In this document: positions 8,038-61,082 of the stretch, piece by piece
Numbering within the stretch: position 1 is the stretch's first letter
Layout of the letters: each line of letters opens with the position of its first letter
Assembly (NCBI GenBank): GCA_016717335.1
Contig: JADKFS010000012.1
Coordinates: 29,421-93,420 of the forward strand
Direction of reading: 5' to 3'
DNA: 64,000 nt
Source of the DNA: Candidatus Ribeiella danica
GTDB lineage: Bacteria > Chloroflexota > Chloroflexia > Chloroflexales > Roseiflexaceae
Notes under the pieces: model-generated
Database searches by the model: none
The model's input: only the letters and a program-made list of their open reading frames with translations
Told to the model about the DNA's origin: nothing
Made by a program: the position numbers and the translations under genes

Positions 8038-8087
8038 CGCTGTTGCGGCTGCGCCGCTTCGTCAGGGCGCAGTGGGGCGCCGGATCG

Positions 8088-29980: not shown

Positions 29981-30075
29981 CCCCTCACCCCCTGCCCCCT
30001 CTCCCGCCGGGAGAGGGGGGAATTATTGGCTCGGCACGGGGTTTCGGCGGAGCTGAAACCCCGTGCCGAGCTACC
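29981..30075. repeat. MITE/REP-like element, family A (CCCCTCACCCCCTGCCCCCTCTCCCGCCGGGAGAGGGGGG + CGGCACGGGGTTTCGGCGGAGCTGAAACCCCGTGCCG hairpin)
   Basis: Read directly; same GGGGTTTCGGC..GCCGAAACCCC hairpin module as 9283-9418 and 63668-63806 copies. Confidence 0.85.
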
Positions 30076-33463: not shown

Positions 33464-35980
33464 CTAGCGCGTCAGCGCCACCTTCACCACCACCTCGCCG
33501 CGCAGGGTGATGTGGGCCGTCTGGGCAACCTGGTGGCCGTCGCTGGTCGCGCGGGCCTCGCTGGCGCTGAACACTAGGTCCTGCGCGGCGTGGCCCTTGC
33601 GGGCGAGGCGCTGCTCTGGCTGGGCGGCGATACGCAGCGGCGCGGCCGCGGCGCCCGGCAGCACGCGCTTGAGCACCGCCCGCGCGCGCGCGACTAGCGC
33701 GCCCGGCACGCGCGCCTCCTCCAGCGTTACCAGCGGCCGGTGCGCCGGCGCGCCTTCCGCGCCCGCCAGCTTCGGGGCGGCCCAGCCGGAGGCGGCGGCC
33801 AGCGGCGCCACGCCGGCCCACGGGTCGCCCAGCAGCACGAACTCGCCCAGGGTCTTGACGTCGACGTCGTCCAGGAAGCCCTGGCGGTGATAGATCGTCT
33901 GCGCGAACTCCAGCCGGGCCTGCTGCAGCGCATGGCCGACCGGCAGGCCGCGCGCCAGGTGCGCGAGCAGCCGCTGGCAGAGCAGGTCGGCGCAGACCAG
34001 CGGCGCGGCGTAGCTGCCGTAGGCGCTGGCCGTCGCGCCGACGCAGGCCAGCGCGCCCTCGGCCAGCGCGCGCAGGGGGATCGAGGTCGCGGTCGTGCGG
34101 CCGGGCAGCTCCATCCCGTAGCAGGCCTCGCTCACCAGGATGCCGCCGGCGACCACGCCGCCGATCTGGTCGGGGCGCAGCGCCACCGGCAGGCGCGACG
34201 CCGCGCCCGACCCGATCCCCTCGCCCTGGCCGTACCAGTTCGGCAGGCCGGCGCCGCCGTGCAGGTTGACGTACAGCAGCCGGCGCGCCGCCAGCGCGCG
34301 TGGGTCGAGCGCGTCGGCGTCGAGCGGCGGCGAGGCGTGCAGCGCGGCGTCGCGCTCGATCGCGTCGAGCACGGCGCGCGAGCTTTCCTGCCAGACGCGG
34401 GCGGTGTAGCCGCCGCTCAGGGCCGCCTGCGCGTGCGGCGGCCAGCGCACGCCCAGCAGCCCGCGGCCGGCAGGGATCTGAGCGACGGGCCGCGGCATCC
34501 GGCCGTGATGGTAGTCGATCATCTGATCGAGCGTGGCCAGCAGCAGCGCGGGGCTGGGGCCGGCGCCGTCCGGCAGCCGCGCGACGATGCGCTGTGGCGC
34601 CAGGTAGCCGGCGTCGTCGCTGGCGTACGGGCTATCGGACAGCACGACGCCGTCGTCGTCGTGGGCCGGGTTCGGCAGGCGGTGAAACGGGATGCACTCG
34701 TCGCCGCCGATCAGCAGCAGCACCGCCAGCTCGCGTCGCTCCTGCGCCAAGGCCGCCGACATCGCGCGCACCAGCTCGCCGATCGCCGCAGCGTCGCGCG
34801 GCACCGGCGCGAGCGAGACGCCGCCGCCGACCCGCAGCGAGGCCGCGTCGTCGAGATAGCAGCAGTGCGTCTGAAGGCCGCGCCGCCCCAGCGCGGCCGC
34901 GAGCGCGCGCAGGCGCCGATCGATCGCCGCGAAGGCTGCCTCGCCGTAGCGCTCGATCAGCGCGAACCGGCAGCCCAGCAGCACCTGGGCCTGCGGGCAA
35001 GCGGCGGCCGGGTTTGCCAGCGGCCCCGGCGCGCCTGTGACGCTGGCGACTCGCAGTCGCACGCGCTCGGTCGTGGCGATCAGGCTGCTGACATCCGGGT
35101 CGGGCTGGGGCGGTGCGGGCGGCAGGTTCGCTTTGGCGCCGGCGGCAGATTTGCGGGCCGGGCCGAGGCGGAGCGGCAGCAGCGTCAGAAACGGTCGGAT
35201 CGAGTCGAGTGCGGCTGCCCATGCCAATGCTGGCGGCGGGGCAGGCTCCCAGGGTGGCGGCTCGGGCGCGGCCAGCAGGCGCGCCTGCTGCCCGTCGGGG
35301 TCGTAGCCGGCACAGCGGGCGCGCGCGACGGCGCCGTCGCCGGGCCAGGCGCCAAGGGCCAGCTGTAGCAGTGTCGCCGGCAGGCTGGCGCGCTCCAGGT
35401 CCACGAGCAGCGCGAGCTGGCTGCGCGCCGCGCCCAGGTTATCGCAGCGCCGCAGCGCCTCGACGTAGTACAGACGCAGGTCCGCCCGCCGCGGCTCGCG
35501 CGCGAGGGCCGCCGCAAGCTCGGCGACCGCCAGGTCGGCCAGGCCGCGCCGCAGGTAGAGCACGCCCAGCCCGAGCGGCTGGGGCGAGTCGCCCAATCCA
35601 GGCGCCGTGTCGCCGAGCGGGTCGTGCAGCGCCGCCCGCCGCAGCGCAGCCTGCGACTCCTGAAGCCGCCCGCACCGCGCGAGCGCGGCGGCCAGGCCGG
35701 CCCACGCGGCGGCGCTGAGCGGGTTCAGCTTCAGCGCGCGGTGAAAGTGCGCGGCGGCCTCCTGGTGCCGACCCAGGTCGAGCAGCGCCTGGCCGAGCAG
35801 GGCCAGCGGCGAGATCGCCTCGGGCCAGCGCTCGCGCACGGCAATAGCCGCCTGCCGGGCCGCCTGAGGCTCGCCCAGGCGCAGCGCCAGCTCGATCGCG
35901 CGGCAGACCTGCTCCAGATCGAGCGGCTGGTCTTCAGAAGCCGTTGCAGCGCCAGGGTGGGCTAACAGCCGATCGCTCAT
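33464..35980 (-). CDS. TPR-repeat protein with C-terminal caspase-like (CHAT-type) peptidase domain
   Basis: True start MSDRLLAHPG at 35980 (ATGA overlap with stop of upstream NACHT gene; the track's 1033-aa version is a frame-overlap extension). N-terminal TPR-like helices; C-terminal LYVNLHGGAG...(46 aa)...GILVSEACYG gives His-Gly / Ser-x-Ala-Cys dyad spacing typical of caspase-fold CHAT/C14 peptidases. Confidence 0.7.
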   Translation of the reverse strand: MSDRLLAHPGAATASEDQPLDLEQVCRAIELALRLGEPQAARQAAIAVRERWPEAISPLALLGQALLDLGRHQEAAAHFHRALKLNPLSAAAWAGLAAALARCGRLQESQAALRRAALHDPLGDTAPGLGDSPQPLGLGVLYLRRGLADLAVAELAAALAREPRRADLRLYYVEALRRCDNLGAARSQLALLVDLERASLPATLLQLALGAWPGDGAVARARCAGYDPDGQQARLLAAPEPPPWEPAPPPALAWAAALDSIRPFLTLLPLRLGPARKSAAGAKANLPPAPPQPDPDVSSLIATTERVRLRVASVTGAPGPLANPAAACPQAQVLLGCRFALIERYGEAAFAAIDRRLRALAAALGRRGLQTHCCYLDDAASLRVGGGVSLAPVPRDAAAIGELVRAMSAALAQERRELAVLLLIGGDECIPFHRLPNPAHDDDGVVLSDSPYASDDAGYLAPQRIVARLPDGAGPSPALLLATLDQMIDYHHGRMPRPVAQIPAGRGLLGVRWPPHAQAALSGGYTARVWQESSRAVLDAIERDAALHASPPLDADALDPRALAARRLLYVNLHGGAGLPNWYGQGEGIGSGAASRLPVALRPDQIGGVVAGGILVSEACYGMELPGRTTATSIPLRALAEGALACVGATASAYGSYAAPLVCADLLCQRLLAHLARGLPVGHALQQARLEFAQTIYHRQGFLDDVDVKTLGEFVLLGDPWAGVAPLAAASGWAAPKLAGAEGAPAHRPLVTLEEARVPGALVARARAVLKRVLPGAAAAPLRIAAQPEQRLARKGHAAQDLVFSASEARATSDGHQVAQTAHITLRGEVVVKVALTR

Positions 35981-38900
35981 GCCAGCACTTCCTGATCGGC
36001 GCCGCGCAGATGATGCGCGACAAAGGCGAGCGGGCCAAGCGTGCTCAGCTCGACGATCGCCTCGCTGTAGCCGGGCGACAGGCGCACGGCGCGCCGGTAG
36101 CGCTCGATCGCGCGGCTGTACTGCTTGAGGCGCCGGTGCGCCTTGCCGGCCAGGAAGTGGTAGCGCGCCTGCTCGGGCTGTAGCTCGGCCGCGCGCTCGA
36201 ATGCCGCCAGCGCCTCGCGATTCAGGCCGACGTCGAGCGCTGTCTCGCCGTAGCGTATTTGCACCTCCGGGTCGTCCGGCGCCAGCCTGACCGCGCGCTC
36301 CATTACGCGGTGGGCCGCGTCGAAGTGGCGCGCGTGGGCAAGCGCCTCGGCGTACGCCATCTGGTAGTCCACCTCGTCCGGCGCCAGCTCGGCCGCGCGC
36401 TGGATGTGGCGCAGCACCGCCTCGACGTCCGCTTCCCGCGCCAGGATCTGGGCCATGCCGGCGTGCGCCGCGGCGGCCCTGGGGTCGAGCGTCAGGGCAC
36501 GCTCGAACGAGCCGCGCGCCTCCGCCAGCTCGCCAAGCGCAAGGCAGGCGCGGCCGAGCCGCCACCAGTGCTCGGCAATGCCCGAGTCGGGCGCGACCGC
36601 CCTACGGTAGTGCCAGGCCGCCTGGTCGTGGCGCTGCCCCTGCTCGAGCAGCGCGCCGGCAGCGGCGTGGAGCTGCGCGTCGTCGCCAAAGCGATCGAGC
36701 GCGCGCTCCAGGGTTTCGAGCGCGATCTCGCAGCTCGAATGGCGCCGCTGCGCGTGCGCGAGCGTGCGCCAGTGCTCGGCGACGCCGGGGGCGAGCTGGA
36801 CGGCGGCTGCGAAGTGGTCGAGTCCGCCGCGCTGATCGCCCAGCTGCCCGGCGAGCTGGCCGAGCTGGTAGTGCCACTCGCCGCGGTCGGGGGCGAGCTG
36901 CAGCGCCTGCTCCAGCGCCGCGCGCGCCTCGGTCGCCAGCCCCTGCCCGGCGAGCAGGCGCGCGTACGCGTAGAGATAGTCGACGTTCGTGGGGTCGAAC
37001 TGCGCCGCGCGCGCGTGTGCGCTGCGCGCGGCATCGCTTATCCCCAGCCGCAGGCAGATCTCGCCCATCTGCGCGTGCCAGGCCGCCACGCCCGGCTGGA
37101 GCGTCGTCGCGTTGATCAGCGCGGCGCGGGCCTCGTTGAGACGCCCGCCGTGGGCGTACAGAGTCGCCAGGCGCTGGTGATAGGCAGCGACGCTCGGGTC
37201 GAGCCGGACAGCCCGGACGGCCGCGGCCAGCGCGCGCTCGTGCCGCCCGAGCGACGTATAGGCGGCGCTGAGCGCCGCGAGCGTGGGGGCGTGGTCGGGC
37301 CGCAGCTCGGTCGCGCGCTCGACCGCCACGACTGCCTCGGGCGACCGATCGAGCGCGCCGAGCACGCGCCCGAGGAGCAGCTGCATGCGCGGGTTGTCGG
37401 GCTCCGCGCCGGCCGCGGCCACAAGCGCCGCGTGCGCGGCCGACAGGTCGCCCAGCTCATACGCGATCCGGCCGAGCAGGTACGCGTCGGCGGCAGCCTC
37501 CGCGCCCTGCTCGCGTGCCGAATCGAGATCGGCGCGCGCCTCGGCCGGCCGGCCGAGCAGGTATAGCGACAGCGCCCGCCGACGCAGGATGTCGGCCGGC
37601 GCGACGTGCTCCTGCTGGGCGACGCCGCGGATCGCTTGCCGCGGCGTGAGGCCAACCTCCCCGGCGCTTGGGGCCGCCAGGCACCGATCGAACGACTCGA
37701 CCGCCGCGGCGTGCCGGCAGAGCAGCTGGTCGGCCAGGCCAAGCTCGTAGCGCCAGCGCAGGGAGCCAGGCTCCAGCGCGACCGCGCGCTCGAACGCGGC
37801 GCGGGCCCGATCGAGCGCCGGGCGAGTCGATTCCGCTGCGACGTGCAGCTCGTCCGGCTCGTCCACAAGCGGCACATTATGTCGATACGCTCGCCCCAGG
37901 GCGCCGTGATACGCGGCGACATCGGGCGCCGCCGCCGTGGCCGCCGTCAGCGCCGCGACTGCGGCTTCGACGGCGCCGCGCTCGAGCGACGCACTGCCGA
38001 GCAGGAAGGCCGCGCGCGCGTTGGCGGGATCGAGCTCGTGCGCGCGCCGCAGCGCCTGCAGCGACTCGTCCGGCGCGCCCTGGGCGAGCAGCGCCTCGCC
38101 GAGAATGCGCCAGTGGTCGCTCTGGTGCGGCTGGAGCGCGACCGCCCGGCGCGCGCTCTCGACCGCAGACTCGCGCGCAGGCGACTCAAACGGTTCGCTA
38201 GGCACGGCCTCCGGCCACTCCAGCAGGAGCTCGGCGAGCCGCGCATGGGCCGGCGCCAGCTGCGGCGCGCGAGCGATCGCCTGCTGGAGCTGCGCCAGCG
38301 CCCCGGCGCGCTCGCCAAGCTGCGCGAGCAGGCAGCCGTAGCGATAGCGCAGCGTCGCGTCTTCGGGCATCGCCGCCACGGCGCGCGGCCAGGCGCTCCG
38401 GGCATCCTCATGCCGATCGAGCGCCTCATAGTCGTCGGCCAGCTCGGCCCACCAGCCGTCCGGGCCGCCCTCGGCCAGCGCGCGCGCAAGCTGACCGGCC
38501 GACTCGGCGCGCCGGTCGAGTCCGCACAGCGCGATCGCCAGCAAGTAGCGGTGCTTCGCCGTCGGCTGCAGATCGACCGCCCGCTCGGCGGCGGCCAGCG
38601 CGTCCTTGTATACCCCGCCAGAGGCCAGCAGCTGCGACAGCAGCGCGAAGCTGGCAGCGTCGTCCGGGCCGCGCCGCAGCGCCTCGGCTAGATCGTCGCG
38701 CGCGGCTTCGATCTGCCGCAGCTCAAGGTGCAGCCCGGCGCGCAGCCGCCAGAGCTGGTGGTGCCCGGGGCTCGCGGCGATGGTGTGGTTCAGCTCGGCC
38801 AGCGCCTCGGCGTGCCAGCCGCGCTCGATCTGGATCTGCGCCAGCTCGGCGCGCCACAGCGCGGCATCCGGCCGGAGGCGCAGCGCGTGCTCGATCGCCT

Positions 38901-41900
38901 CCGCGGCGCCCGCATGCTCGCCCAGCGCGTGCAGGCAGCGCCCGAGCGCGGAGTGATGCTCGGCATTGCCGGCGTCCAGCAGAGCGGCGCGGCGCAGGCA
39001 GGCGAGCGCCGCCGCGTGGCCGCCCGCGTCCACGTGGGCCTGCCCGAGCGCGTAGTGCCACTCGGCCCGCGCGGGCTCGCGCTCGGCCGCGGCGCCGAGG
39101 TGTAGGATCGCGCCGGCGTGGTCGCCCGCGCCGGACAAGGCGCGCGCCAGCGTCACACGGTGCGCGGCGACCTGGGGCGCGAGCGCGACCGCTCGCTCCG
39201 CACAGGCGCGCGCCTGCCCCCAGTCCTGCGACTGGGCGTAGATCCGGCTGAGCTGCGCGTGGGCCTCGGCCAGGCTCGGGTCGATCTGCAGCGCCCGCTG
39301 GAGCGGCTCGGCCGCCGCGCCGGGATCGCCCGCGCCAAGCAGCAGCTCGGCCAGGCGCAGGTGGTGCCGGGCGCAGTCAGGGGCCAGCGCCAGCGCCTCG
39401 CGCGCCGCCCGCAGCGCGTCGGCGGGCTGGCCGGCCCGGTCGAGCAGGTCGCGCAGCGCGGCAAAGGCCGCGTCGGTCGGTGCCAGCGCGGCGGCCCGCG
39501 CGAGCAGCGGCAGCGCCTGGTCGTCGCTGCCGAGCTGGACCAGCGCCTGGCCGGCGATCAGCGCCGCGTCGGCCAGGTCCGGGGCGAGCTGAAGCGCAGC
39601 CTGCGCGCTCGACAGCGCCGATGGCGGCTGCTCCAGCTCCAGCAGCACGCGCCCGCGGCCAAGGTGCGCGCCGACCAGAGTCGAATCGCGTGCCAGCGCC
39701 CGGTCGAACAGCTCCAGCGCCTCGTGCGGGCGGCCAAGCCGCAGCGCCAGCTCGCCGGCGTGCTGCTGGTGTGCGGGCAGCGCCGCCGCGAGCCGGGCGG
39801 ACTGGCGCGCAGCCTGGTAGGCTGCCTCGATCTGGCCGCAGGCGCCGAGCGCCTCGCTGTAGTGGAACAGCGTCTGGGGGTCGTCGGGCTGGATCTGCAG
39901 CGCCTGCGCGAACGCCGCGAGCGCCTCGTCCAGCCGCCCGGCCAGGGCGAGCGCGCGACCGAGAGCTTCGTAGGCGGGCGCCGTCCGCTCGAGTCGCAGC
40001 GACCGGCCGAGCGCCCGGATCGCGCGGCCCCAGGACGCGTCGGCGACATGGGCCAGGCCGGCCTGGTAGAGCGCCGCCGCGTTCCGGCGGTCGCTGCGCA
40101 GCGCGCGCGCCAGGTGCCTGCGGGCCTGGGCGCGATCGCCGAGCCGGAGCCGCATGGCGCCGGCCGCGCGCGCGAACTCGGCGCGCCCCGGGGCGAGCGC
40201 GGCTGCACGCTCGTACGCGGCGAGCGCCGGCTCGATCTGCCCGGCGGCCTCGGCGACCGTCCCGGCGTCGTAGTGCAGCTCGGCGCGCGCGGGCGCAAGC
40301 GTGGCGGCGCGCCGGAGGTGCCGGGCCGCCGGGCGCAGCTGGCCCAGCTCGCGATGGGTCCGGCCGAGCGCGCGCTCATAGTCGGCGCTGTGCGGGTCGA
40401 GCGCCAGCGCGCGCCGGTAGGACTCGAGCGCCGGCTCGTGCTGCCCCTGGCGCCACAGCAGCTCCGCTATGTCAGCGTGCGCGGCAGCGCTGTCGGGGCG
40501 CAGGCCAAGCGCGGCCCTCAGCACGAGCTGCGCCTCCTCGTCGTCGCCGCGGTCGCGCAGCAGCGCCCCAAGGCGGTGCTGGTAGGCGTCATTCAGGGGA
40601 TCGAGGCGCACGGCGTGGCGATACGCTGCCAGCGCGCCGGATTGCTCGCCGCACAGCTCGCAGGCCTCGCCAAGCTCGAACGACAGCGCGGCGCTGCCGG
40701 TGTCCAGCTCGGCGGCGCGCTGCAGAGCCGCCCGCGCGCCGGAGCAATCGCCCAGGGCGCGCCGCAGCCGGCCAACCTCGCGGTAGAGCTCGGGCCGCGC
40801 CGGCTCGATCGCCGCAGCCTTCAGGTAGCAGGCGATCGCCTCGGCCAGCCGCCCGGCGCCGCCGTAGAGCCGGCCAAGCTCGGCGTGCGCCGCCGCGTCG
40901 TCGCCATGCTCGTCCAGCAGCGCGTGGAGGAGCGCCTCGGCCTCGTCTGCCTGCCCGCTCAGGCGCAGCGCGCTCGCCACGCTGCGCTGGTATGCCGGAT
41001 CGTCCGGCCGTCCCGCCAGCGCCTGCCGATACGCCGACAGCGCGCGCTCGGCCTGACCCTGCCGCAGGTAGACCTGGCCGAGCTCGTAGGCGGCCTCGGA
41101 CAGGCGGTGCTGCTGCGCCTGCACGACCGCCTCTAGCGCGACCGCGGCCTGGTCCATCTCACCCAGCCGGCTGCAGACCACGCCCAGCTCCTGGCGGTAG
41201 CGCAGGTCGCCGGCCTCGCGGGCGAGCGCCTGCTCGTAGGCCGCGCGCGCGTGGCGCCACTGCCCGGCCGCGCCATACAGCTCGCCCAGACGCCCGAACA
41301 GGCCAGCCTCATCGTAGCCATCGAGCGCGGCCCGCTCGAGCTGTTCGAGCGCGGCGGCGGACAAGCCCTCGGCGGCAAAGGCGTCAGCCAGCATCACGCG
41401 CAGCGGCGGGGTCAGGGCGCCAATCCGCGCCAGCAGCGGCTCGAACTGGCCCGGCGCCTCGGCGTCGATCAGGCAGCGCGCCGCAAGCGACACCGCGCCG
41501 TTGGCGAGCAGCCGGCGCAGCACCGACTCGCGATCGCCGCACAGGCTATACGCCAGCACGACCGCGTCGCCCGAGGCGCGCGCGAAGCTGCCGGCCGGCC
41601 AGGTCTCGGGGCTCGCGCGGGCGAGCAGGAGCGCCTGGCCAAACGCGCGCAGCGCCGGGCGTCGAAACGAGACCTGCTGCCGCTCGGGGTCGAGCGCCAG
41701 GATGCCCGCGCCCACCAGCAGCTGCAGCAGCCCCGGCGCCATATCCGGCGTGGGCGAGTCCCGCGCGCCGATCGCCGCCAGCGCCTCGGCTATGCTCAGC
41801 GAGCCGCGCCGGTCGCGGTCGAGCGCCGCCGCAAGCTCAGGCAGCGCCGCGAGCGCCGCCTCCGCCGTCGCCGGCGACCGGTGCGCCTCCAGCGCCGCGG

Positions 41901-42741
41901 CGATCACGGCGGGCAGCCATGCGGCCAGCAGCCGGCCGCGGCTCAGCGGCCCGGTCGGCCCCAGCTCATGGGCGATCCCGCCTGGCAGCGCGGCCAGCCA
42001 GCGCGGGCAGGCGGCCAGCTCGGCCAGGTCTTCCGCGCGCTGCAGCCAGCCGGCCAGCTCGTCGCCGTGCCGTCGCTGGATCAGGCCGAGCGCGTCGCGC
42101 GGCTGCAGCGCGCGGATCTCGCGCACCTCGGCCGCGCCGAGCCAGGGGCGGAACAGCGCCAGGCGCTCGCTCCGGCAGGTGCAGATCCAGCGCGCCTGAG
42201 GGCCGAGCGCCGCCAGCGTGTGCGACAGCGCCGACAGGCTGATCAGCTGCATGTCCGGCGCGACCTCGTCTAGCCCGTCGAGCAGCACCAGCAGCGGACG
42301 CTGCTGGGCCAGCTCCTGCAGCGAGGGGGCCTCCGGTCCAAATCCAGCGGCGAAGGTTGCCTCGACGCTGTGCTGGAAGCATGCCAGCTCGATGTACAGC
42401 GGCAGCGGCAGGGGGCTTTTGGCCCTGCCCGAGGTCGCGCTGGCGGGCTCGCCCGCATCCTCCGCGAGGATCGCCTCGGCCAGCCCGCAGGCGAGCTGCC
42501 GCAGCAGCGTGGTCTTGCCGGCACCGGCCGGGCCGGCCAGCATGAGCCGCGGCCAGATCTCGGCGGCCATCTGGATCGTCACGCGCGCGGCCCTGGGCGG
42601 CCAAAGCGCCTGCTCGCCCGCGGGCTCCCGCTCGCCGGCGCGGGCCAGCCACAGCGGCACGACCTCGCGCGACCCGCTGAAGCGCGGGTCGGCGCGCAGC
42701 GCCTGCAGGTAGAGCTGAATCCAGGCTTTGGTTCTACTCAT
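35977..42741 (-). CDS. Giant STAND NTPase: N-terminal NACHT-type P-loop domain followed by ~1700 aa of TPR repeats
   Basis: Start MSRTKAWIQLYLQ at 42741 (AT-richer upstream region); Walker A LMLAGPAGAGKTTLLRQL, Walker B LLVLLDGLDEV, then dozens of 34-aa TPR units (A..Y..AL.L.P..A.....LG...). 2254 aa. Confidence 0.8.
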   Translation of the reverse strand: MSRTKAWIQLYLQALRADPRFSGSREVVPLWLARAGEREPAGEQALWPPRAARVTIQMAAEIWPRLMLAGPAGAGKTTLLRQLACGLAEAILAEDAGEPASATSGRAKSPLPLPLYIELACFQHSVEATFAAGFGPEAPSLQELAQQRPLLVLLDGLDEVAPDMQLISLSALSHTLAALGPQARWICTCRSERLALFRPWLGAAEVREIRALQPRDALGLIQRRHGDELAGWLQRAEDLAELAACPRWLAALPGGIAHELGPTGPLSRGRLLAAWLPAVIAAALEAHRSPATAEAALAALPELAAALDRDRRGSLSIAEALAAIGARDSPTPDMAPGLLQLLVGAGILALDPERQQVSFRRPALRAFGQALLLARASPETWPAGSFARASGDAVVLAYSLCGDRESVLRRLLANGAVSLAARCLIDAEAPGQFEPLLARIGALTPPLRVMLADAFAAEGLSAAALEQLERAALDGYDEAGLFGRLGELYGAAGQWRHARAAYEQALAREAGDLRYRQELGVVCSRLGEMDQAAVALEAVVQAQQHRLSEAAYELGQVYLRQGQAERALSAYRQALAGRPDDPAYQRSVASALRLSGQADEAEALLHALLDEHGDDAAAHAELGRLYGGAGRLAEAIACYLKAAAIEPARPELYREVGRLRRALGDCSGARAALQRAAELDTGSAALSFELGEACELCGEQSGALAAYRHAVRLDPLNDAYQHRLGALLRDRGDDEEAQLVLRAALGLRPDSAAAHADIAELLWRQGQHEPALESYRRALALDPHSADYERALGRTHRELGQLRPAARHLRRAATLAPARAELHYDAGTVAEAAGQIEPALAAYERAAALAPGRAEFARAAGAMRLRLGDRAQARRHLARALRSDRRNAAALYQAGLAHVADASWGRAIRALGRSLRLERTAPAYEALGRALALAGRLDEALAAFAQALQIQPDDPQTLFHYSEALGACGQIEAAYQAARQSARLAAALPAHQQHAGELALRLGRPHEALELFDRALARDSTLVGAHLGRGRVLLELEQPPSALSSAQAALQLAPDLADAALIAGQALVQLGSDDQALPLLARAAALAPTDAAFAALRDLLDRAGQPADALRAAREALALAPDCARHHLRLAELLLGAGDPGAAAEPLQRALQIDPSLAEAHAQLSRIYAQSQDWGQARACAERAVALAPQVAAHRVTLARALSGAGDHAGAILHLGAAAEREPARAEWHYALGQAHVDAGGHAAALACLRRAALLDAGNAEHHSALGRCLHALGEHAGAAEAIEHALRLRPDAALWRAELAQIQIERGWHAEALAELNHTIAASPGHHQLWRLRAGLHLELRQIEAARDDLAEALRRGPDDAASFALLSQLLASGGVYKDALAAAERAVDLQPTAKHRYLLAIALCGLDRRAESAGQLARALAEGGPDGWWAELADDYEALDRHEDARSAWPRAVAAMPEDATLRYRYGCLLAQLGERAGALAQLQQAIARAPQLAPAHARLAELLLEWPEAVPSEPFESPARESAVESARRAVALQPHQSDHWRILGEALLAQGAPDESLQALRRAHELDPANARAAFLLGSASLERGAVEAAVAALTAATAAAPDVAAYHGALGRAYRHNVPLVDEPDELHVAAESTRPALDRARAAFERAVALEPGSLRWRYELGLADQLLCRHAAAVESFDRCLAAPSAGEVGLTPRQAIRGVAQQEHVAPADILRRRALSLYLLGRPAEARADLDSAREQGAEAAADAYLLGRIAYELGDLSAAHAALVAAAGAEPDNPRMQLLLGRVLGALDRSPEAVVAVERATELRPDHAPTLAALSAAYTSLGRHERALAAAVRAVRLDPSVAAYHQRLATLYAHGGRLNEARAALINATTLQPGVAAWHAQMGEICLRLGISDAARSAHARAAQFDPTNVDYLYAYARLLAGQGLATEARAALEQALQLAPDRGEWHYQLGQLAGQLGDQRGGLDHFAAAVQLAPGVAEHWRTLAHAQRRHSSCEIALETLERALDRFGDDAQLHAAAGALLEQGQRHDQAAWHYRRAVAPDSGIAEHWWRLGRACLALGELAEARGSFERALTLDPRAAAAHAGMAQILAREADVEAVLRHIQRAAELAPDEVDYQMAYAEALAHARHFDAAHRVMERAVRLAPDDPEVQIRYGETALDVGLNREALAAFERAAELQPEQARYHFLAGKAHRRLKQYSRAIERYRRAVRLSPGYSEAIVELSTLGPLAFVAHHLRGADQEVLA

Positions 42742-42834
42742 TGCGTCTCGATCCAATATGTTGTCATATCGATGTGCCCCATTCCCTACCCGTGGTGGGA
42801 GTAAGTTTTGTCGAGCGCATCCTCGTGCGCTGCA

Positions 42835-42895
42835 GGCCCTCACCCCCCTGCCCCCCGCTCCCGCCGCCACAGGAGCGGGGGGGGTTGGCTGGGGC
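42835..42895. repeat. MITE/REP-like element family A, half copy (GCCCTCACCCCCCTGCCCCCCGCTCCCGCCGCCACAGGAGCGGGGGGGG)
   Basis: Read directly upstream of the giant NACHT gene. Confidence 0.75.
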
Positions 42896-42900
42896 GATCC

Positions 42901-48230: not shown

Positions 48231-48262
48231 GCAGAGGCAGAACAGCAGACTAGGTAGAACGT

Positions 48263-50737
48263 GTGGCGTCGTACAAACCCGACCCGCCCCCGCTGTTGCA
48301 GCAGTACCAGCGCGCCGCCGGAGCCGGCTCGGCAGGTATCGCCGCGTCAGCCCCCGAAGCCGGCCAGGCCCTGATCAGCTATCTGCGCGCGATCGTCGCG
48401 CAGGCCCGCGATATTCCGCTCGGCCGGGTGGGCGCGCCCGCGCGCCGCCTGCCGCTGCTCGACCTGTACCTGGAGCGCGGGCTGCTGCCGCTCGAACCGG
48501 CGGCTGAGTCGGCCGAGCGCCCGCAGCCCGGCCAGCCGCTGCTCCGGTCGCCGCTCGATCTCATCCGCCCGGCCGGCGCGCGGATCGTGCTCGAGGGGCG
48601 GGCCGGCTCCGGCAAGAGCACATGCCTGCGCCGGCTGGCGCTGGCGTGCGCCGCCAGCTGGCTGGGCGAGCCGGATCTCTACGGCGATCTGCTGGCGGCG
48701 TGGCCCGGCCCGCCGCCCCTGCCGCTGCTGCTGTCCGCGCGCGACGGCTGCGGCGCGGACCCGCTTAGCCCGCCTGGACTCGACCCCGCGGCGCGGCCGG
48801 CGATCCGCGAGCAGCTGCAGCTCGGCCGCGCGCTGGTGCTGATCGATGGGCTCGACGACCTGGCCGACCGGCAGGAGTTGGACGCCGCGCTGGCGGCGAT
48901 CGAGCGGCTGAGCGCGCAGTATCCCGCGAACAGGTACGTCGTCGCGAGCGGCCCGCGCGCCGATCGTCGGCTGGCCGGCTTCGCGCGCTATAGCCTGGCC
49001 CCGCTCGACGCCGCCGAGGTCGACGCGATGATCGCGCGCTGGTACGGGGCGATCGCCGGGGAGGGCGCGCCGGATGTTGGCGAGCGCGTCGCCGTGCTGC
49101 AGGGCCACATGCGCGCCTCCAGGCAGCTCCACGCGCTGGCGGCCAGCCCGCTCGGCCTGGCGCTCTGCATCCTCGCGCACGCCGACGGGCACGCGCTGCC
49201 GGCGGAGCGCGGGGCGATCCTGGCCCGGCTGGCCGATCTGCTGCTCGACGGGTGGGATACGGGGAGCGCCGGCCTGCTCGCCCAGGTCGTCGGCGCGGGC
49301 CGGCCAACCAGCGTGGAGCAGCGCCTTGGCTTGCTGGAGCCGCTGGCGCTGGCGCTTCAGTCCGAAGCGGGCCAAGCGGCCGAGCAGCCGGGCGCGCTGA
49401 GCGACGCCACCGCTGCGATGCTCCTGCGCGCGCCGCTCGTGGCGCTGGGCGTTCCGGCCGAGCAGGCGAGCGCGCGGCTGCTCGATTGGTGCTGCGACAG
49501 GGGCATTCTGACCCAGGCCGGAGCGCAGGGCGACCGCACGATCGCGTGGCCGCCGCTGCGCGAGTACCTGGCCGCGCGCGCGCTGGCGGCCGCGCCCGAC
49601 TTTGTCGAGCGCGCGGCTGGCCTCGGCGGCGACCCGCGCTGGCACGAGCCGATCGCCCTGGCGATCTCGGAGCTTGGCCGCGAGCGGGCGCCGCAGGCGG
49701 CCGGCGAGCTGTTTCGGCGCCTGATCGAGCGCGCCGATAAGCCGGCCAGGCGACCGGCAAGTCGCGCCCCGGCATCTGCGCCCGAGGCGGCAGAGCCGCC
49801 GTGGGGCGCGACCCTGCTCGCCGCCGCGTGCCTGCTGCAGCTGGGCAGCTCGGAGGCGCGTGTCGAAGCGCTGCGCGTGGAGGCGCGGGCGCGCCTGGTG
49901 GAGCTGATGCAATCGCGCGCGTGCCCGCTGGCCGCGCGCGTGCGGGCGGGGCTGCTGCTCGGCGAGCTGGGCGATCCGCGGTTCGCAAGCCTGCTTCCGC
50001 CGCTGGCGCACATCCCGGCCGGGGCGTTCGTGCTGGGCGCGCAGGGGCGCTACGAGGACGAGGGGCCGACGCAGCGCGTCAACGTGCCCAGCTTCTCGAT
50101 CGGGCTGTACCCGGTCACCAACCACGAGTACGCGCGGTTTCTGGCCGACGAGCTGGGCTACCCGCCGCCGCGCTACTGGCACGACCCGCGCTTCAACAAC
50201 CCGGCCCAGCCGGTCGTGGGCGTGACGTGGCACGACGCGAGCGCCTACTGCCGCTGGCTGAGCGAGCGCCTGGCCCTGGCCGGCCTGCTGCCGGCCGAGA
50301 TGACCGCGCGGCTGCCGCTGGAGGTCGAGTGGGAGAAAGCCGCCGGCTGGGACGCGCGGCGGCGCGCCAAGCGGCGCTACCCCTGGGGCGAGGAGTGGTC
50401 GAGCGCGCGGGCCAACACGGCCGAAGCGCGCGGGGCGTGGGTCACCGCGCCGGTAGGGTGCTACCCGGAGGGTGTGAGCCCGTTCGGAGCGCACGATATG
50501 ATCGGCAACGTGTGGGAGTGGATGGCGAGCGTCTACGCCAGCTACCCCGGTTCGGCGGCGCCGTTCCACGAGCCGAAAAGCTACGTGCTCCGCGGCTCCT
50601 CGTGCGTCTCGCTGCCCAAGGAGGCGCGCTGCACCTATCGCAGCCGTCTGCCGGCCGACTACTGGCGCTACCACCTCGGCTTTCGCGTGGTGGTCGCGAG
50701 CCCGCTGGACGGCGGCAGCGGTCAGCGCATCGATTGA
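48263..50737 (+). CDS. STAND NTPase with NACHT-type P-loop domain, HEAT/PBS-lyase-like repeats and C-terminal FGE-sulfatase (formylglycine-generating enzyme/SUMF1-like) domain
   Basis: GTG start 48263; Walker A IVLEGRAGSGKSTCLRRL, Walker B ALVLIDGLDDL; C-terminal YPVTNHEYARFLADE...VVGVTWHDASAYCRWL...GNVWEWM...VLRGSSCVSLPKEARCTYRSR...HLGFRVV matches FGE-sulfatase fold motifs. Confidence 0.8.
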   Translation: MASYKPDPPPLLQQYQRAAGAGSAGIAASAPEAGQALISYLRAIVAQARDIPLGRVGAPARRLPLLDLYLERGLLPLEPAAESAERPQPGQPLLRSPLDLIRPAGARIVLEGRAGSGKSTCLRRLALACAASWLGEPDLYGDLLAAWPGPPPLPLLLSARDGCGADPLSPPGLDPAARPAIREQLQLGRALVLIDGLDDLADRQELDAALAAIERLSAQYPANRYVVASGPRADRRLAGFARYSLAPLDAAEVDAMIARWYGAIAGEGAPDVGERVAVLQGHMRASRQLHALAASPLGLALCILAHADGHALPAERGAILARLADLLLDGWDTGSAGLLAQVVGAGRPTSVEQRLGLLEPLALALQSEAGQAAEQPGALSDATAAMLLRAPLVALGVPAEQASARLLDWCCDRGILTQAGAQGDRTIAWPPLREYLAARALAAAPDFVERAAGLGGDPRWHEPIALAISELGRERAPQAAGELFRRLIERADKPARRPASRAPASAPEAAEPPWGATLLAAACLLQLGSSEARVEALRVEARARLVELMQSRACPLAARVRAGLLLGELGDPRFASLLPPLAHIPAGAFVLGAQGRYEDEGPTQRVNVPSFSIGLYPVTNHEYARFLADELGYPPPRYWHDPRFNNPAQPVVGVTWHDASAYCRWLSERLALAGLLPAEMTARLPLEVEWEKAAGWDARRRAKRRYPWGEEWSSARANTAEARGAWVTAPVGCYPEGVSPFGAHDMIGNVWEWMASVYASYPGSAAPFHEPKSYVLRGSSCVSLPKEARCTYRSRLPADYWRYHLGFRVVVASPLDGGSGQRID

Positions 50738-53126: not shown

Positions 53127-54194
53127 TCAATCGCGCGGGAGGCTCGGGACCGGCCAGCCCTGCGGGTGGATCACGTAGGCGGTTCCGCTGGAATTGGCCT
53201 GCCAGGCCCGCTCTAGCTGCGCGGCGTCGTAGAGCCGGCGAACGGCGCCCTCGTCGTCGCCGCGCGGGTCGGCGACGACCACCCGCCCCTGCGCGTCGAA
53301 GCCGGCGACGATCAGCAGGTGGCCGGCGCTCGCCGGGATCGGCGCGTTGTCCAGCTCGCCCGCGCCCCAGGCCACGCTGATCGCCAGCGGCACGCCGGCC
53401 GCCAGCCACGGATCGAGCTGGTCGAGCCCGGCGAAGCGCGCGACGTAGCCATCCAGCCCGCGGCCGGCCGCGAAGGCCGTGTTGAAGCCCCAGTTGCCGT
53501 GGCCGTCGTAGACCGGATCGTAGACTTGCGGCACGACCAGATCCGCGACGGCGCCGCGCTCGGCGAAGGGCGCCAGCCGCTCGTCGCCGGTCTGCGCGTG
53601 CCAGTAGGCCAGCAGCATGCCCGTGCAGGTCGGGCTGCACAGGTTGCGACCGTTCGGGTAGGCCAGCTGCGAGCGCGCCGGCACCGGCAGCTCGCGCGGT
53701 GTGAGGCGGCCCGGCGACGTGGCGCGCGCACCCGGCGCGCTTAGCGCCAGGCGCAGCGCCCGCAGCTCCGTCCGGCGCTCGCTCTCGCCGAGGAGCAGCA
53801 CGCGCGGCTGCACCGCATCAGCGGGGCCGGCGAGCGACAGCGTGTCGGTCGCGACGCGCCCGTCGGCGTCCTGCTGCGCGTCGAAGCTGCGCCGGGCGCT
53901 GTTTTCGGCCAGGCTATCCCACTGCGCGATCCGGTAGAACGCCGTCCAGCGGCCGTCGCGCCGGGCGCGCAGCTGCAGCTCGATCCGGCTCCCGCCCGGC
54001 GTGGTCGCGGCCCACGAGGGGACGGCCTCGGCAAAGGGCGCCGGCGCGGCGGCCTCGGGCCCCAGCAGAATCGTCGCCGGCGCGCCGTCGACGGCGGCGG
54101 CCTCGCTATGCCAGCCGTGCGCGGCGTCGAACTGATCCCAGGAGAGCAGCGCTCGCATCGTTGTTGCTCCGTCGCTATGGCGGTCCGGCGACAT
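53127..54194 (-). CDS. Peptidase C39-like (papain-fold cysteine peptidase) domain protein with N-terminal uncharacterised domain
   Basis: Start MSPDRHSDGATTMRALLSW (54194, or 54158 after GGAG SD); C-terminal NGRNLCSPTCTGMLLAYW (catalytic Cys) and SAGHLLIVAGFD (His) match Peptidase_C39_2; track N-terminal extension through heptamer arrays rejected. Confidence 0.65.
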   Translation of the reverse strand: MSPDRHSDGATTMRALLSWDQFDAAHGWHSEAAAVDGAPATILLGPEAAAPAPFAEAVPSWAATTPGGSRIELQLRARRDGRWTAFYRIAQWDSLAENSARRSFDAQQDADGRVATDTLSLAGPADAVQPRVLLLGESERRTELRALRLALSAPGARATSPGRLTPRELPVPARSQLAYPNGRNLCSPTCTGMLLAYWHAQTGDERLAPFAERGAVADLVVPQVYDPVYDGHGNWGFNTAFAAGRGLDGYVARFAGLDQLDPWLAAGVPLAISVAWGAGELDNAPIPASAGHLLIVAGFDAQGRVVVADPRGDDEGAVRRLYDAAQLERAWQANSSGTAYVIHPQGWPVPSLPRD

Positions 54195-54202
54195 TGTACC
54201 AT

Positions 54203-54432
54203 CGAACGCTGAACGCTGAACGTTGAACGCTGAACGCTGAACGTTGAACGCTGAACGCTGAACGCTGAACGAACGTTTGAACGCGTTTGAATGTTTGAAC
54301 GTTGAACGTTTGATCGAACGCTTTGAACGTTTGAACGTTTGAACGCCGGCTATCAACAGCCCCAAGCCCCAAGCCCCAAGCCCCAAGCCCCAAGCCCCAA
54401 GCCCCCAGGCCCAAGCCCCAAGCCCCACTCGT
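54203..54432. repeat. Two adjacent tandem heptamer arrays: (GAACGCT/GAACGTT/GAACGTTT)n ~20 units (54203-54352) then (CCCCAAG) x10 (54358-54432)
   Basis: Read directly. Confidence 0.95.
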
Positions 54433-58071: not shown

Positions 58072-58113
58072 ACCCCCCTCTCCCGCCGGGAGAGGGGGGC
58101 AGGGGGGTGAGGG
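58072..58113. repeat. MITE/REP-like family A half copy (CCCCCCTCTCCCGCCGGGAGAGGGGGGCAGGGGGGTGAGGG)
   Basis: Read directly. Confidence 0.8.
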
Positions 58114-58199
58114 AAAACAACATAATGATATGACCAAGATATGCTACAATATCCGCATCCATACGCCATTCGAGCCAGAATTGCGGAAGGCTAGCGGCG

Positions 58200-61082
58200 T
58201 TGCAGAGCATCAGCGAGATCGTTCAGACTATCGCGCGCCAGCGCGGGCGTGGCGGCGATGCGCAGCCGCTCCTGGCGACGCTGCCGATCGAGGGCGCGCC
58301 GGGAGAGCGGATCGCGCACCTGCCAATTGACTCAGACCTGGCGCAGGCCTGGGTCGCGCTGACGGGCGAGCCGTTTCGGCCGCACCAGGCCCACGCGCTC
58401 ACCGCGCTCCGCCGCGGCGAGCCGGTGGCGCTGCGCGCGTCGAGCGCCGACGTGGCGATCAGCGCGCACCTGCTGCTCTACGCCACGCTGCTGGCCGACC
58501 CATCCGCGACGGCGCTGCTGATCGCGCCCGACCAGGCCGCCGCGCTGGCCGCGCGCGCCGCTATCGCGCAGATCAACCAGGACCTGCCGCGCAGCCTGCA
58601 CCTGAGCGCCACGCCGCTGGAGCACGCCCGCCGGCCGGATATGTACGCGCGGGTGATCATCGCTTCCCCCGAGACCGTCCACAGCCGGCTGCTGCGCCAC
58701 CACGATCGCGCGTGGCGGCTGTTCTGGCCGCAGCTCCGGCTGGTGGTGCTGCCCGAGCTGCAGCGCTGCACGGGCGTGGCCGCCGCGCAGCTGGCCGATC
58801 TCTTGCTGCGCGTCCAGCGCGTCGCCGCCGGCCACACCGGGCAGCACCCCGGCCTGCTGGCCACGCTTGAGGATGTGGCCGAGCCCGAGCCCACGCTCGC
58901 GGGCATGCTCGGCCGTCCCTGGCGGGTCGTCCCGGCCGACGACGGGCCGCGCCAGCCGACCACCCTGGAGATCTGGCGCGCCGGCGGCGCGCGGCTGCGC
59001 GAGTCGGTCGAGATCGCCACGGCGATGCAGCGCCAGGGCTACCAGGTGCACATCTTCTGCCGGCCGTTCGAGCAGGCGCTGGTCGCGCCGCTGGCCGGCG
59101 ATCTGCCGCGGCTGACGTTCGGGCCGAACCTGCTGCCGGGCCAGGGGCTGGTGGTGGCCGGCTACCCCGGCTCGCACAGCCGGCTCCGGCGCATGCTGCG
59201 CGCCGGCTACCAGACGGTCGTCCTGGCGCTCGGCGAGCTGCCGTACGAGCAGGCGCTGGCGCGCCACGTCGAGGGGCTGCTGACCGAGCCGGCGCCGATC
59301 TGGGTGACGCCGCCGCCCAACGCCTATGTGCTGGCGAAGAACATCCTGTGCGCCGCGAGCGAGCAGCCGCTGACCGAGACCGAGGTCGAGGCCTGGGGCG
59401 CCGGCGACATCGTCGATCGGCTCGTCGCGCAGGGCAAGCTGGTCGACCTGCCCGACCCCGAGGTGGCCTGGAAGCCGACCGACGCGGCCGGCGACCCGTA
59501 CGCCGACTGGAGCCTGCGCTCGCCGATGGGCGAGGCCGTCGTCGCGCGCAACGAGCAGGCCCAGGTGGTCGGCGCGGTCGAGCCGGCGATCTACGAGCGC
59601 TGGGCCTTCCCGAACGCCGCGCTGCCACCGGCGATCGGCGGGTTCCGAATCCTGTCGCGCGACGAGGAGACCGGCGCGCTGACCCTACGCATGGAGAGCG
59701 CGGGCCGGCGCACCTATCCGCTGCGCCGCTGCGAGGTCGCCGTGCGCGAGGTGCGCGAGAGCCGCACGCTGCCGGGCAGCGCCATGATCGGCTGGGGCCG
59801 CGTGCTGGTCGACGAGGAGGTGTACGGCTACCGCGAGCTATCCGGCAGCAGCGCGCCGGCCGAGGTCGCGCTCGCGCCGACGCTGCACGCGCGCTGGGCC
59901 GCGCCGGCCTGCTGGTTCGATCTGCCCGCCGCCATCCAGGTGCTCGGCCAGCTGATCGGCTGGAGCCTGGCGGCGGCCCTGCCGCTGCGCGCCCTGGCCG
60001 AGCTCACCGATGTCGTGCCGTGCTACGACCACGAGGCCCGCCGGCTGTACCTGGTGGACGCCCAGCCGGGCGGCAATGGCCTGGCGCTCTGGACCTACAC
60101 GCACGCCGAGGATCTGCTGCCGCTGGCCTACGACGTGGCGCACGCCAGCCGCAACGATCCGCTGCTCGAGCCGCTCTGCCGCGTCGATATGGACTGGCTG
60201 CTGGCGCTGCTGGGCCGCCAGGCCGCCGAGGCCCACGTCCCCGCGCGCGCGCCGGCCGCGCCGATCCGCAAGACCGAGTTCGTCGAGGGGCCGCCGCCCG
60301 AGCCGGCGCCCGCGCGCCCGGCCAGCCTGCCGCCCGCCGAGGCCCGGCGCCCGGCGCCCGCTCCGCCCGCGGCGCCGCCTGACGATGCGCCGCCCGCGCG
60401 CCCAGCGCCGCGCGGCCAGCCCGCCCCGCCGGCTGGTCGCCGCGCGGAGCCGCCTCCGGCTGACGACCCGCTGCCGCCCGCGCGCCCAGCGCCGCGCGGC
60501 CAGCCCGCCCCGCCGGCGCGATCGTACTCGCAGGGCCGGCCCGACCACGAGGCGAAGGCCAAGCCGCCCGAGCAGCGCTCGATGTTCGGCGGCGGTCGGC
60601 CGCGCCCAGGCAGCCCCGAGCCTCCTCCCGGCCCCGTACGCCCAGCCGCGCCCGAGCCGCCCGAGACCAGGCGCCCGCCGCCCGGCGGCCCCGCACGCCC
60701 AGCCGCGCCCGAGCCGCCGCAGCGGGGCCGCCCCGCGCCGCCCGACGACAGCCCGCCCGACCCGGCAGCGCTGGTCGCACGGCTGCGCCGCGAGCGCGAG
60801 CAGCGCGAGGCCCGGCAGCAGCCGGGCGGGTCGCGCCGCGCCGCGCCAGCTCCCGCCGGCGATCAAGGGGGCGATCGGGGGGTCGAGCGGCGCTTCAGCG
60901 CCGGCGACAAGATCTTCTGCCTGCCGTACGGCGACGGCATCGTGCGCGAGAGCCGCGCCGCGGGCGGGCGCGAGCTGCTGGTGGTGGCATTCCCTGACTA
61001 CGGCGAGCTCGAGATCGACCCGGACGTCAGCCTGGTGCGCAAGCTGGAAGATGCGGCGCCGGAGGACGACGATCTCCTGTAG
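58200..61082 (+). CDS. Catalytically degenerate MrfA/YprA-like (DEAD/DEAH-box-derived) helicase homolog with DUF1998-like region, Pro-rich linker and small C-terminal domain
   Basis: TTG start 58200 (no in-frame ATG for >150 codons); PFRPHQAHALTALRRGEPVALRASSADVAIS replaces Walker A (no GKT); RLLRHHDRAWRLFWPQLRLVVLPELQRCTGVAAAQLADLLLRVQRV parallels MrfA motif-II region but DExH is PELQ; CYDHEARRLYLVDAQPGGNGLALW resembles DUF1998 GG-x-G region; ~300-aa Pro/Ala/Arg-rich low-complexity stretch. Confidence 0.65.
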   Translation: MQSISEIVQTIARQRGRGGDAQPLLATLPIEGAPGERIAHLPIDSDLAQAWVALTGEPFRPHQAHALTALRRGEPVALRASSADVAISAHLLLYATLLADPSATALLIAPDQAAALAARAAIAQINQDLPRSLHLSATPLEHARRPDMYARVIIASPETVHSRLLRHHDRAWRLFWPQLRLVVLPELQRCTGVAAAQLADLLLRVQRVAAGHTGQHPGLLATLEDVAEPEPTLAGMLGRPWRVVPADDGPRQPTTLEIWRAGGARLRESVEIATAMQRQGYQVHIFCRPFEQALVAPLAGDLPRLTFGPNLLPGQGLVVAGYPGSHSRLRRMLRAGYQTVVLALGELPYEQALARHVEGLLTEPAPIWVTPPPNAYVLAKNILCAASEQPLTETEVEAWGAGDIVDRLVAQGKLVDLPDPEVAWKPTDAAGDPYADWSLRSPMGEAVVARNEQAQVVGAVEPAIYERWAFPNAALPPAIGGFRILSRDEETGALTLRMESAGRRTYPLRRCEVAVREVRESRTLPGSAMIGWGRVLVDEEVYGYRELSGSSAPAEVALAPTLHARWAAPACWFDLPAAIQVLGQLIGWSLAAALPLRALAELTDVVPCYDHEARRLYLVDAQPGGNGLALWTYTHAEDLLPLAYDVAHASRNDPLLEPLCRVDMDWLLALLGRQAAEAHVPARAPAAPIRKTEFVEGPPPEPAPARPASLPPAEARRPAPAPPAAPPDDAPPARPAPRGQPAPPAGRRAEPPPADDPLPPARPAPRGQPAPPARSYSQGRPDHEAKAKPPEQRSMFGGGRPRPGSPEPPPGPVRPAAPEPPETRRPPPGGPARPAAPEPPQRGRPAPPDDSPPDPAALVARLRREREQREARQQPGGSRRAAPAPAGDQGGDRGVERRFSAGDKIFCLPYGDGIVRESRAAGGRELLVVAFPDYGELEIDPDVSLVRKLEDAAPEDDDLL

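Follow-up and report, generated by a model that had tools for sequence, protein, structure and literature searches.

MrfA/YprA helicases constitute a widespread family that is active in repair and defence. In Mfd, an ATPase-dead UvrB-homology module recruits UvrA, and a Tudor-like domain docks on the β subunit of RNA polymerase (RNAP); this pairing of a dead UvrB-homology module with an RNAP-interaction domain was reportedly described by Deaconescu and colleagues in 2006. The Tudor domain of PcrA/UvrD, located behind a long linker, binds a β-hairpin "helicase interaction motif" in RpoB and UvrB (PMC8318588). The recruitment of MrfA was left to "a yet to be identified factor" (Roske et al., 2020; PMC7797055). 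Here we describe a gene of Candidatus Ribeiella danica (Chloroflexota, Roseiflexaceae) that encodes an MrfA-type core with dismantled motor motifs followed by a PcrA/UvrD-type Tudor domain (hereinafter referred to as the pseudo-helicase). The gene was found in a stretch of 64,000 nucleotides (the window; contig JADKFS010000012.1, positions 29,421 to 93,420, of assembly GCA_016717335.1), and all coordinates below are those of the window unless another locus is named.

The structural description as a pseudo-helicase plus Tudor domain is held with high confidence. The coding sequence and its domains were assigned as follows, where aa denotes amino acid positions, ORF open reading frame, and pLDDT the predicted local distance difference test of the structural model:

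58200..61082, + strand: coding sequence of the pseudo-helicase with C-terminal Tudor domain, including the stop codon; 960 aa, TTG start, from the ORF list
58200..58364, + strand: N-terminal region (NTR), aa 1-55, with the conserved IARQRGRGGD; family conservation, alignment with the MrfA NTR, pLDDT >83
58365..58949, + strand: RecA1-like domain, aa 56-250; motifs I-III degenerate, Ib deleted, HH-R 3′-exit contacts kept, from alignments to MrfA and canonical helicases
58950..59294, + strand: trimmed RecA2-like domain, aa 251-365; about 40 aa deleted including motif IVa, V degenerate, VI changed from QQAGRAGRR to RRMLRAG, fold kept
59295..59474, + strand: winged-helix (WH) domain, aa 366-425; LCAASE.PLT block conserved with active helicases, WHD_HRQ1 sub-threshold
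59475..59954, + strand: OB/CON-like β-rich region, aa 426-585; family-specific GRRTYPLRRC, GWGRVxVDE and APACWFDLP, hairpin RDEETGALT (aa 487-495)
59955..60224, + strand: MZB/DUF1998-like domain without the Zn site, aa 586-675; the most conserved domain of the family (mean identity 75%)
60225..60749, + strand: disordered Pro/Arg/Ala-rich linker, aa 676-850; 34% Pro, net charge +6, pLDDT <50
60750..60824, + strand: conserved basic helix, aa 851-875, with PDxxALIxRLRRQREQRE (aa 855-873); conservation and model
60891..61049, + strand: PcrA/UvrD-type Tudor domain, aa 898-950; five-stranded β-barrel
61050..61079, + strand: acidic C-terminal tail, aa 951-960, ending in EDDDLL

The first approximately 675 residues constitute an MrfA-type superfamily 2 (SF2) helicase scaffold with the order NTR-RecA1-RecA2-WH-OB-CON-MZB. 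The query matched NCBIfam TIGR03817 (DECH helicase) with an E-value of 3.5e-41, at a score of 141.3 bits that is below the curated cutoff of 874.1. Among PDB sequences, Bacillus subtilis MrfA/YprA (PDB 6ZNP) was the only real match of the single query sequence (E 1.2e-15), and the family profile aligned with it end-to-end over MrfA residues 24-720 (E 4e-125). An AlphaFold2 model of the query, built from 67 sequences, was confident over residues 1-675 (pLDDT ~95); in a Foldseek search of this model, MrfA was by far the best PDB match (E 2e-39, ~740 columns, TM-score to target 0.60-0.74), followed by Hel308, Pol-theta, and Brr2 at about 1e-11. Pfam searches yielded no match to DEAD (PF00270) or Helicase_C (PF00271) on the query and none on two separate halves of the core, and two matches remained below threshold, WHD_HRQ1 at aa 373-419 and MZB/DUF1998 (PF09369; 14.8 bits vs a cutoff of 24.2, E 0.049). 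A preliminary description of this gene had assigned its N-terminal half to the MrfA/YprA family, which was borne out by the TIGR03817, 6ZNP, family-profile, and Foldseek matches. It had also likened the segment CYDH...DAQPGGNGL to DUF1998, and this segment indeed aligned with MZB/DUF1998 in the profile alignment, which extended through MrfA residue 720.

The domain order and fold of the query were the same as those of MrfA/YprA (PDB 6ZNP/6ZNQ/6ZNS; DUF1998/COG1205). Common to both were also the HH-K/R 3′-exit contacts, the acidic residue of motif Ic, the WH block LxCAAxExP, and PGGxGL in the MZB domain; within the WH domain, C384/A385/E388 were invariant in dead and active sequences alike. Unlike MrfA, the query has gained the long disordered linker, the basic helix, the Tudor domain, and the acidic tail, and it is not accompanied by an adjacent MrfB nuclease. 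It also differs from MrfA in the absence of motifs I, II, III, and VI and of the Cys4 site, in the charge reversal of motif Ia, in the deletion of motifs Ib and IVa, and in the replacement of the WH Phe by Asp.

For these comparisons, the family profile was aligned with MrfA (the PDB index equals the published numbering + 2), and the roles of MrfA residues were taken from Roske et al. (PMC7797055). At motif I (Walker A; MrfA K82/T83), TPTASGKT of MrfA was aligned to ASSADVAI in the query (ASSADVAIS with the next residue); the positions were variable in the family, and GK[ST] occurred in no member. At motif II (DExH; MrfA D185/E186), DELH was aligned to PELQ; family members had Pro, Leu, Met, or Val followed by Glu, Asp, or Ser (PDIH, LDIH, MDVD, VDLH, LSAH, and PDLQ elsewhere), and the first Asp was never kept. 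The Ser of motif III (MrfA S222; SAT) was replaced by Leu, giving TLE in the query, and motif VI (MrfA QQAGRAGRR) was reduced to RRMLRAG with a 5-aa deletion. Motif Ia (MrfA PTKAL) corresponded to APDQA in the query and to P-D-[EQD]-A-A in the family, a reversal of charge. Motif Ib (MrfA YDGD) was deleted in the family, motif IV (MrfA R298) was not conserved, motif IVa (MrfA R333) was deleted together with a stretch of about 40 residues (MrfA index 312-351), and motif V (MrfA TNALELGVD) was degenerate. Further, the base-stacking WH residue (MrfA F483) was a nearly invariant Asp, the "Rope" anchor (MrfA R491) was Leu in the family consensus, and the four Cys of the Zn site (MrfA CxC..GCPxC) corresponded to A(C/S)RNDPLLEP, where at most one Cys was kept and the query had Ser. 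Retained elements were the 3′-exit contacts (MrfA H168/K171, kept as HH-R), the motif Ic acidic residue, and the WH block. The core domains were acidic overall.

Judged by this alignment, both the motor and the canonical single-stranded DNA (ssDNA) track are lost. The preliminary description had noted the changes at Walker A and DExH and had proposed a helicase-dead derivative of a repair helicase; the case has become stronger than first stated, in that the losses also include motifs III and VI, motifs Ia, Ib, IV, and IVa, the Zn site, and part of RecA2. Similarity to the helicase fold was clear, and no intact ATPase motif was found after correct alignment, in the query or in more than 115 members. 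The same losses were present in Roseiflexus, in Chloroploca, in the most divergent, ssb-linked branch (31-34% identity), and in the still more distant proteins P0204/P0205. Because this pattern was common to all branches, the inactivation is older than the diversification of the family.

Among 5.8 billion proteins searched, 115 close homologs were identified (40-70% identity, 840-1290 aa), below which identity dropped abruptly to canonical helicases at 23-26%. In a genome scan limited to one genome per species, 97 encoding stretches were found, of which 79 distinct loci were kept; the best match was from Kouleothrix (68%). The loci were nearly all from Chloroflexales (Roseiflexus, Kouleothrix, Chloroflexus, Oscillochloris, Chloroploca, and Viridilinea), apart from a few obviously mislabelled metagenome-assembled genomes. 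Loci L067, L071, L074, L076 ("uncultured Klebsiella sp."), and L077 ("Singulisphaera sp.") carried a Chloroflexales-type gene with Chloroflexi-like neighbours, and their labels are almost certainly wrong. Almost invariant blocks of the family included GRRTYPLRRC, GWGRVxVDE, APACWFDLP, LGQLIGWSLAAALPLRA, VVPCYDHExRRLYLVDAQPGGNGLA, and DPLLEPLxRVDMDWLLALLGR. This conservation pattern indicates an old pseudo-helicase under selection and not a decaying gene. In current databases, the family is named "helicase", "ATP-dependent helicase YprA", or "hypothetical"; the helicase labels are probably wrong in functional terms.

Downstream of the core, the linker was poorly conserved, and the distance from the end of the MZB-like domain to the C-terminal module ranged from 109 to 557 aa across the family. 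At the DNA level, the linker contained imperfect GC-rich repeats. A Pro-rich linker had been noted before and was present, but its length of about 300 aa did not stand: the disordered part comprised about 175 aa (677-850), and about 225 aa, including the helix at 855-873, separated the end of the MZB-like domain from the C-terminal module. A short spacer separated the basic helix from the β module at aa 898-950, which was modelled with a pLDDT of ~93. The conserved C-terminal module of about 80 aa that had been pointed out earlier, and left unidentified, does exist; its actual extent is a Tudor barrel of about 53 aa (898-950) plus the acidic tail.

To identify this module, a profile of 40 family C-termini was searched against the PDB. 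Four matches were obtained, each weak (E 0.5-1.5), and all four were RNAP-binding Tudor-like domains, namely the N-terminal domain of CdnL (2LQK), the C-terminal domain of UvrD (6YI2 and 7EGS), and the Tudor domain of UvrD1 (9DQS). The profile was also run without heuristics against 1.84 billion representatives. Outside the family, it retrieved proteins, among them genuine UvrD helicases, in which the matched region was the PcrA/UvrD Tudor domain PF21196 (library-wide E 1e-13 to 1e-4). In a separate AlphaFold2 model of the module, the UvrD1 Tudor domain (9DQS) was among the best fold matches, and CdnL/CarD and the RNAP-interaction domain of Mfd were lower. Since the profile searches and the fold matches converged on Tudor domains, the C-terminal module is assigned as a PcrA/UvrD-type Tudor domain. 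As in PcrA/UvrD (PF21196; PDB 5DMA, 7EGS, 7EGT, 9DQS), it is a five-stranded C-terminal barrel behind a flexible linker; in the query it sits on a dead SF2 core of MrfA type, whereas in PcrA/UvrD it sits on a superfamily 1 core. Of the PcrA surface residues W684, F705, and K712 (UvrD counterpart of the last, K708; PMC5397179), the two aromatic positions were conserved in the family as Y910 and F931. The position of K712/K708 was occupied by a nearly invariant Leu937 or was deleted relative to the catalytically intact clade described below. Among the Tudor-profile matches, P0206 (1441 aa) contained three RNAP α C-terminal domains, sigma-70 region 4, and several Tudor repeats, and P0208 (295 aa) was a TIR-Tudor fusion. 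In a related Chloroflexia genome (L005 1-2165, - strand), a UvrD gene (672 aa) preceded a PcrA_UvrD_tudor gene of 79 aa that had been called as a gene of its own; the canonical UvrD Tudor domain thus also occurs in these organisms, here either split off or frameshifted.

Catalytically intact relatives with the same helix-Tudor module were found in metagenomic sequences (L086 4038-6822, L087 719-3551, P0267, P0212, and P0261). P0212, a remote match, contained a canonical, above-threshold MZB domain with the Cys4 motif together with the helix-Tudor module; its relatives were mostly fragments at contig ends, and P0261 was labelled "Chloroflexi bacterium". On the 107-kb contig of L086, a DEAD plus Helicase_C gene overlapped an MZB plus Tudor gene on the same strand; the two ORFs are evidently one gene of about 925 aa split by a frameshift near 5790-5818. 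Several active MrfA-Tudor genes were frameshift-split in this way in long-read assemblies. The motifs of L086 were intact (TSSGKT, DEVH, SAT, TTNALEMGIDIG, QQAGRAGRRG, and CPCSEGCPSC). The active clade passed the Pfam thresholds for DEAD, Helicase_C, and MZB, and PF21196 was found at E 0.002-0.1.

The dead and active clades have homologous C-terminal modules (hhalign 99.1%, E 1e-18). L086 was also the best-scoring active relative of each dead core tested, with 127 bits for the query (other active helicases, 107/82/71); for the Roseiflexus core the score was 108 bits (others <=88) and for L071 it was 77 bits (others <=45). While both groups share the basic helix and the Tudor domain, the active helicases keep GKT, DEVH, SAT, QQAGRAGRR, and Cys4 and have a short linker; the dead family lacks these motifs and has a long one. 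In addition, the active helicases have a basic residue after the Tudor "RG-x-V" turn, unlike the dead family. In the simplest history, an active MrfA-type helicase would have gained a PcrA/UvrD-type Tudor domain, and the motor would later have been dismantled in Chloroflexales with the fold and the Tudor domain kept.

On the basis of these features, we infer a scaffold or regulator role in transcription-associated or gap-associated DNA maintenance. Our preferred model, drawn by analogy and given a probability of about 0.5, is a non-motor adaptor that docks through its Tudor domain on the β subunit of RNAP or on UvrB. The Tudor domain, on its flexible tether of 109-557 aa, would dock the protein onto a β-hairpin or β-sheet surface of the partner, which by analogy with PcrA/UvrD would be the RNAP β subunit or UvrB. 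The newly conserved surfaces of the dead core may then serve to keep a nucleic-acid structure or a second partner in place at that site, with no translocation involved. That the partner is specifically RNAP is a tentative suggestion, for which we would give somewhat less than even odds.

Several observations count against this adaptor model. The binding to RNAP or UvrB is proposed by analogy alone, and that the pseudo-helicase neither hydrolyses ATP nor translocates is presumed from sequence only. The Pfam search with the isolated C-terminal 81 aa gave no match, and the PF21196 hidden Markov model does not score the query. The basic Tudor residue needed for RNAP binding and remodelling in PcrA/UvrD is absent, which suggests a different partner or binding mode. 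The canonical ssDNA-binding residues of the core are eroded, with charge reversals, and its domains carry an overall acidic charge, which makes DNA binding by the core doubtful. Furthermore, no MrfB-like nuclease was seen next to the gene at the loci examined, and a family-wide conserved operon was rejected, as synteny was specific to subclades.

Instead of RNAP, the Tudor domain may target a protein carrying a helicase interaction motif, such as UvrB, in which case the pseudo-helicase would regulate UvrD/PcrA, or compete with it, in nucleotide-excision or gap repair. This seems unlikely; the absent basic Tudor residue weakens it as it does the RNAP case, and no uvr gene was adjacent in any locus examined. 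More doubtful still is a factor associated with single-stranded DNA-binding protein (SSB) or the replisome at ssDNA gaps or forks, whose acidic tip (…DDDLL/…DDDF) would mimic the SSB tip or act alongside SSB. It draws on the gene neighbourhoods, which were analysed by all-vs-all ORF clustering over 80 loci. In all 15 of the 15 loci of the most divergent branch (L061, L062, L065, L067, L068, L070-L077, L079, and L080), canonical ssb (PF00436, tail DDDxDLPF) was located directly downstream on the same strand with a gap of 33-117 bp; in L077, for instance, the gene extended over 5378-8053 and the ssb ATG was at 8170. Loci of the query's own branch had dnaX and recR 1-3.6 kb downstream on the same strand, beyond a convergent DUF4349 gene (L006, L009, L011, L018, L053, L057, L064, and L066; e.g., L053 9588-11528 and L018 11940-12617), and in Chloroploca ruvB was two genes upstream. 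An acidic run with a hydrophobic end was present in 76 of 109 members, though not in the ssb-linked branch, in which the acidic tails were without the terminal LL/F found elsewhere. The ssb, dnaX-recR, and ruvB associations hint at DNA metabolism but are statistically weak. Each adjacency is limited to one subclade and could be inherited synteny; about one DNA-metabolism neighbour is expected by chance over the gene slots examined; an opposite-strand gene lies between dnaX-recR and the pseudo-helicase gene; and the likeness of the tail to the SSB tip is compositional only. The window itself did not show dnaX or recR.

The two remaining alternatives concern the core. That it is still an NTPase or translocase using non-canonical residues is highly improbable: an almost invariant Q-motif-like FRPHQ is present and DxH survives at motif II in some members (PDIH, VDLH), but the P-loop Gly-Lys-Ser/Thr occurs in no member, the motif I position varies freely, and the Ser of motif III, the Arg-Gly-Arg of motif VI, and about 40 aa of RecA2 are gone. 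The loss of all catalytic features would also fit a decaying relic without function. This is effectively refuted by the conservation pattern, with intact full-length ORFs in about 80 or more species-level genomes across three Chloroflexales families (Roseiflexaceae, Chloroflexaceae, and Oscillochloridaceae), mean identities of 75% in the MZB-like and 68% in the Tudor domain, and many invariant family-specific residues.

Beyond the adaptor model, the OB-like domain contains a β-hairpin, RDEETGALT (aa 487-495; window 59658-59684), that resembles the PcrA helicase interaction motif without its essential Glu. The family form of this hairpin was R-D-[ED]-[ED]-x-G-[STA]-[ILV]-[TSV], and the strict PcrA motif [VIL]-D-x-x-T-G-E-[VIL]-[VILT] was found neither in any family protein nor in a translation of the window in all six frames. 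A compensated contact between the Lys-less Tudor domain and the protein's own Glu-less hairpin is conceivable from these residues, although the Asp of the hairpin is ancestral in MrfA. A long shot is an order-wide passive bridge, in which the Tudor domain would reach the transcription machinery and the acidic, SSB-like tip would reach SSB-coated or replisome DNA, a reading that also draws on the ssb and dnaX-recR neighbourhoods; such a protein would be a sensor or adaptor for transcription-replication conflicts or gaps, perhaps regulated by a latch between the Tudor domain and hairpin 487-495. If this bridge existed, the active MrfA-Tudor helicases would point to a long-sought recruitment route for MrfA-type repair helicases.

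The Tudor domain on some MrfA-type helicases is a known RNAP/UvrB docking module, which suggests a testable route of recruitment. An entire bacterial order has kept a version with the motor dismantled, in which strong selection acts on the fold and the docking module. This would make it a bacterial pseudo-helicase that follows a logic similar to that of the dead UvrB-like module of Mfd or the dead polymerase ImuB. Mfd is the nearest functional analogy, with no membership claimed, as it likewise combines a dead helicase-derived module with a Tudor-like RNAP domain. However, Mfd also has an active translocase, whereas the pseudo-helicase has nothing active, and the Tudor domain of the latter is of the PcrA/UvrD type, not of the Mfd/CarD type.

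Full-text literature searches yielded no description of this pseudo-helicase family, and none of an MrfA/YprA helicase with a Tudor domain or of a dead branch of YprA. The main text of a 2025 phylogenomic survey of the YprA family contained no mention of Tudor domains, RNA polymerase, or helicase inactivation. Among the table rows listed in the survey, Chloroflexia appeared only as ARMADA helicases and none of the family's locus tags occurred, which does not prove their absence.

A comparison with DISARM DrmB-like defence proteins, which the preliminary description had drawn, was not supported. PADLOC gave no match for the query, Roseiflexus, or an ssb-linked member, and a trace DruE match (21 bits) for Chloroploca; defence-type gene context was also lacking. 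The defence relatives considered (DISARM DrmA/DrmB, Druantia DruE, Dpd, and ARMADA) were rejected in view of the negative PADLOC result for the query and of neighbours that were housekeeping genes varying between subclades.

The GC content at third codon positions of ORF 58200..61082 was 0.92, which is typical for real coding frames in this window of about 70% GC. The TTG start is well supported because homologs begin at the same residue as the query (MQSISEI...). Two elements were read directly from the sequence upstream of it:

58185..58190, + strand: Shine-Dalgarno-like GGAAGG, 9 nt upstream of the TTG start
58142..58150, + strand: possible extended -10 element TGcTACAAT (tentative)

The possible -10 element lies about 50 nt upstream of the gene, inside a divergent intergenic region of about 280 bp; a sigma-70 consensus scan around the gene found no full -35/-10 pair and no convincing promoter or terminator. 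The upstream neighbour, a gene for a small membrane protein resembling GlsB/YeaQ, and the downstream one, which codes for a DUF4349 protein, both run on the opposite strand; the pseudo-helicase gene is therefore monocistronic. A GC-rich palindrome, CCTCTCCC-N3-GGGAGAGG, was present in three copies in the window (4823-4841, 29998-30016, and 58077-58095), where none is expected by chance. It resembles a REP-like intergenic element, and the copy at 58077-58095 falls within the pseudo-helicase promoter region.

No partner helicase or repair gene was found within the 64-kb window. Its large ORFs encoded ABC transporters, histidine kinases, NACHT-TPR and NACHT-FGE proteins, an amidase, and an SPFH protein. 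The NACHT-TPR protein (35977-42900, - strand) is a giant STAND-type NTPase of 2307 aa, and a second STAND-type NTPase of 827 aa (48254-50737, + strand) combines a NACHT-like P-loop with an FGE-sulfatase domain. In addition, odd short peptide repeats including QRSAFNVQRSAF... were found at the predicted N-terminus (~54200-54430) of the 433-aa ORF 53127-54428 (- strand); they probably reflect tandemly repeated DNA at the true start or upstream of it.

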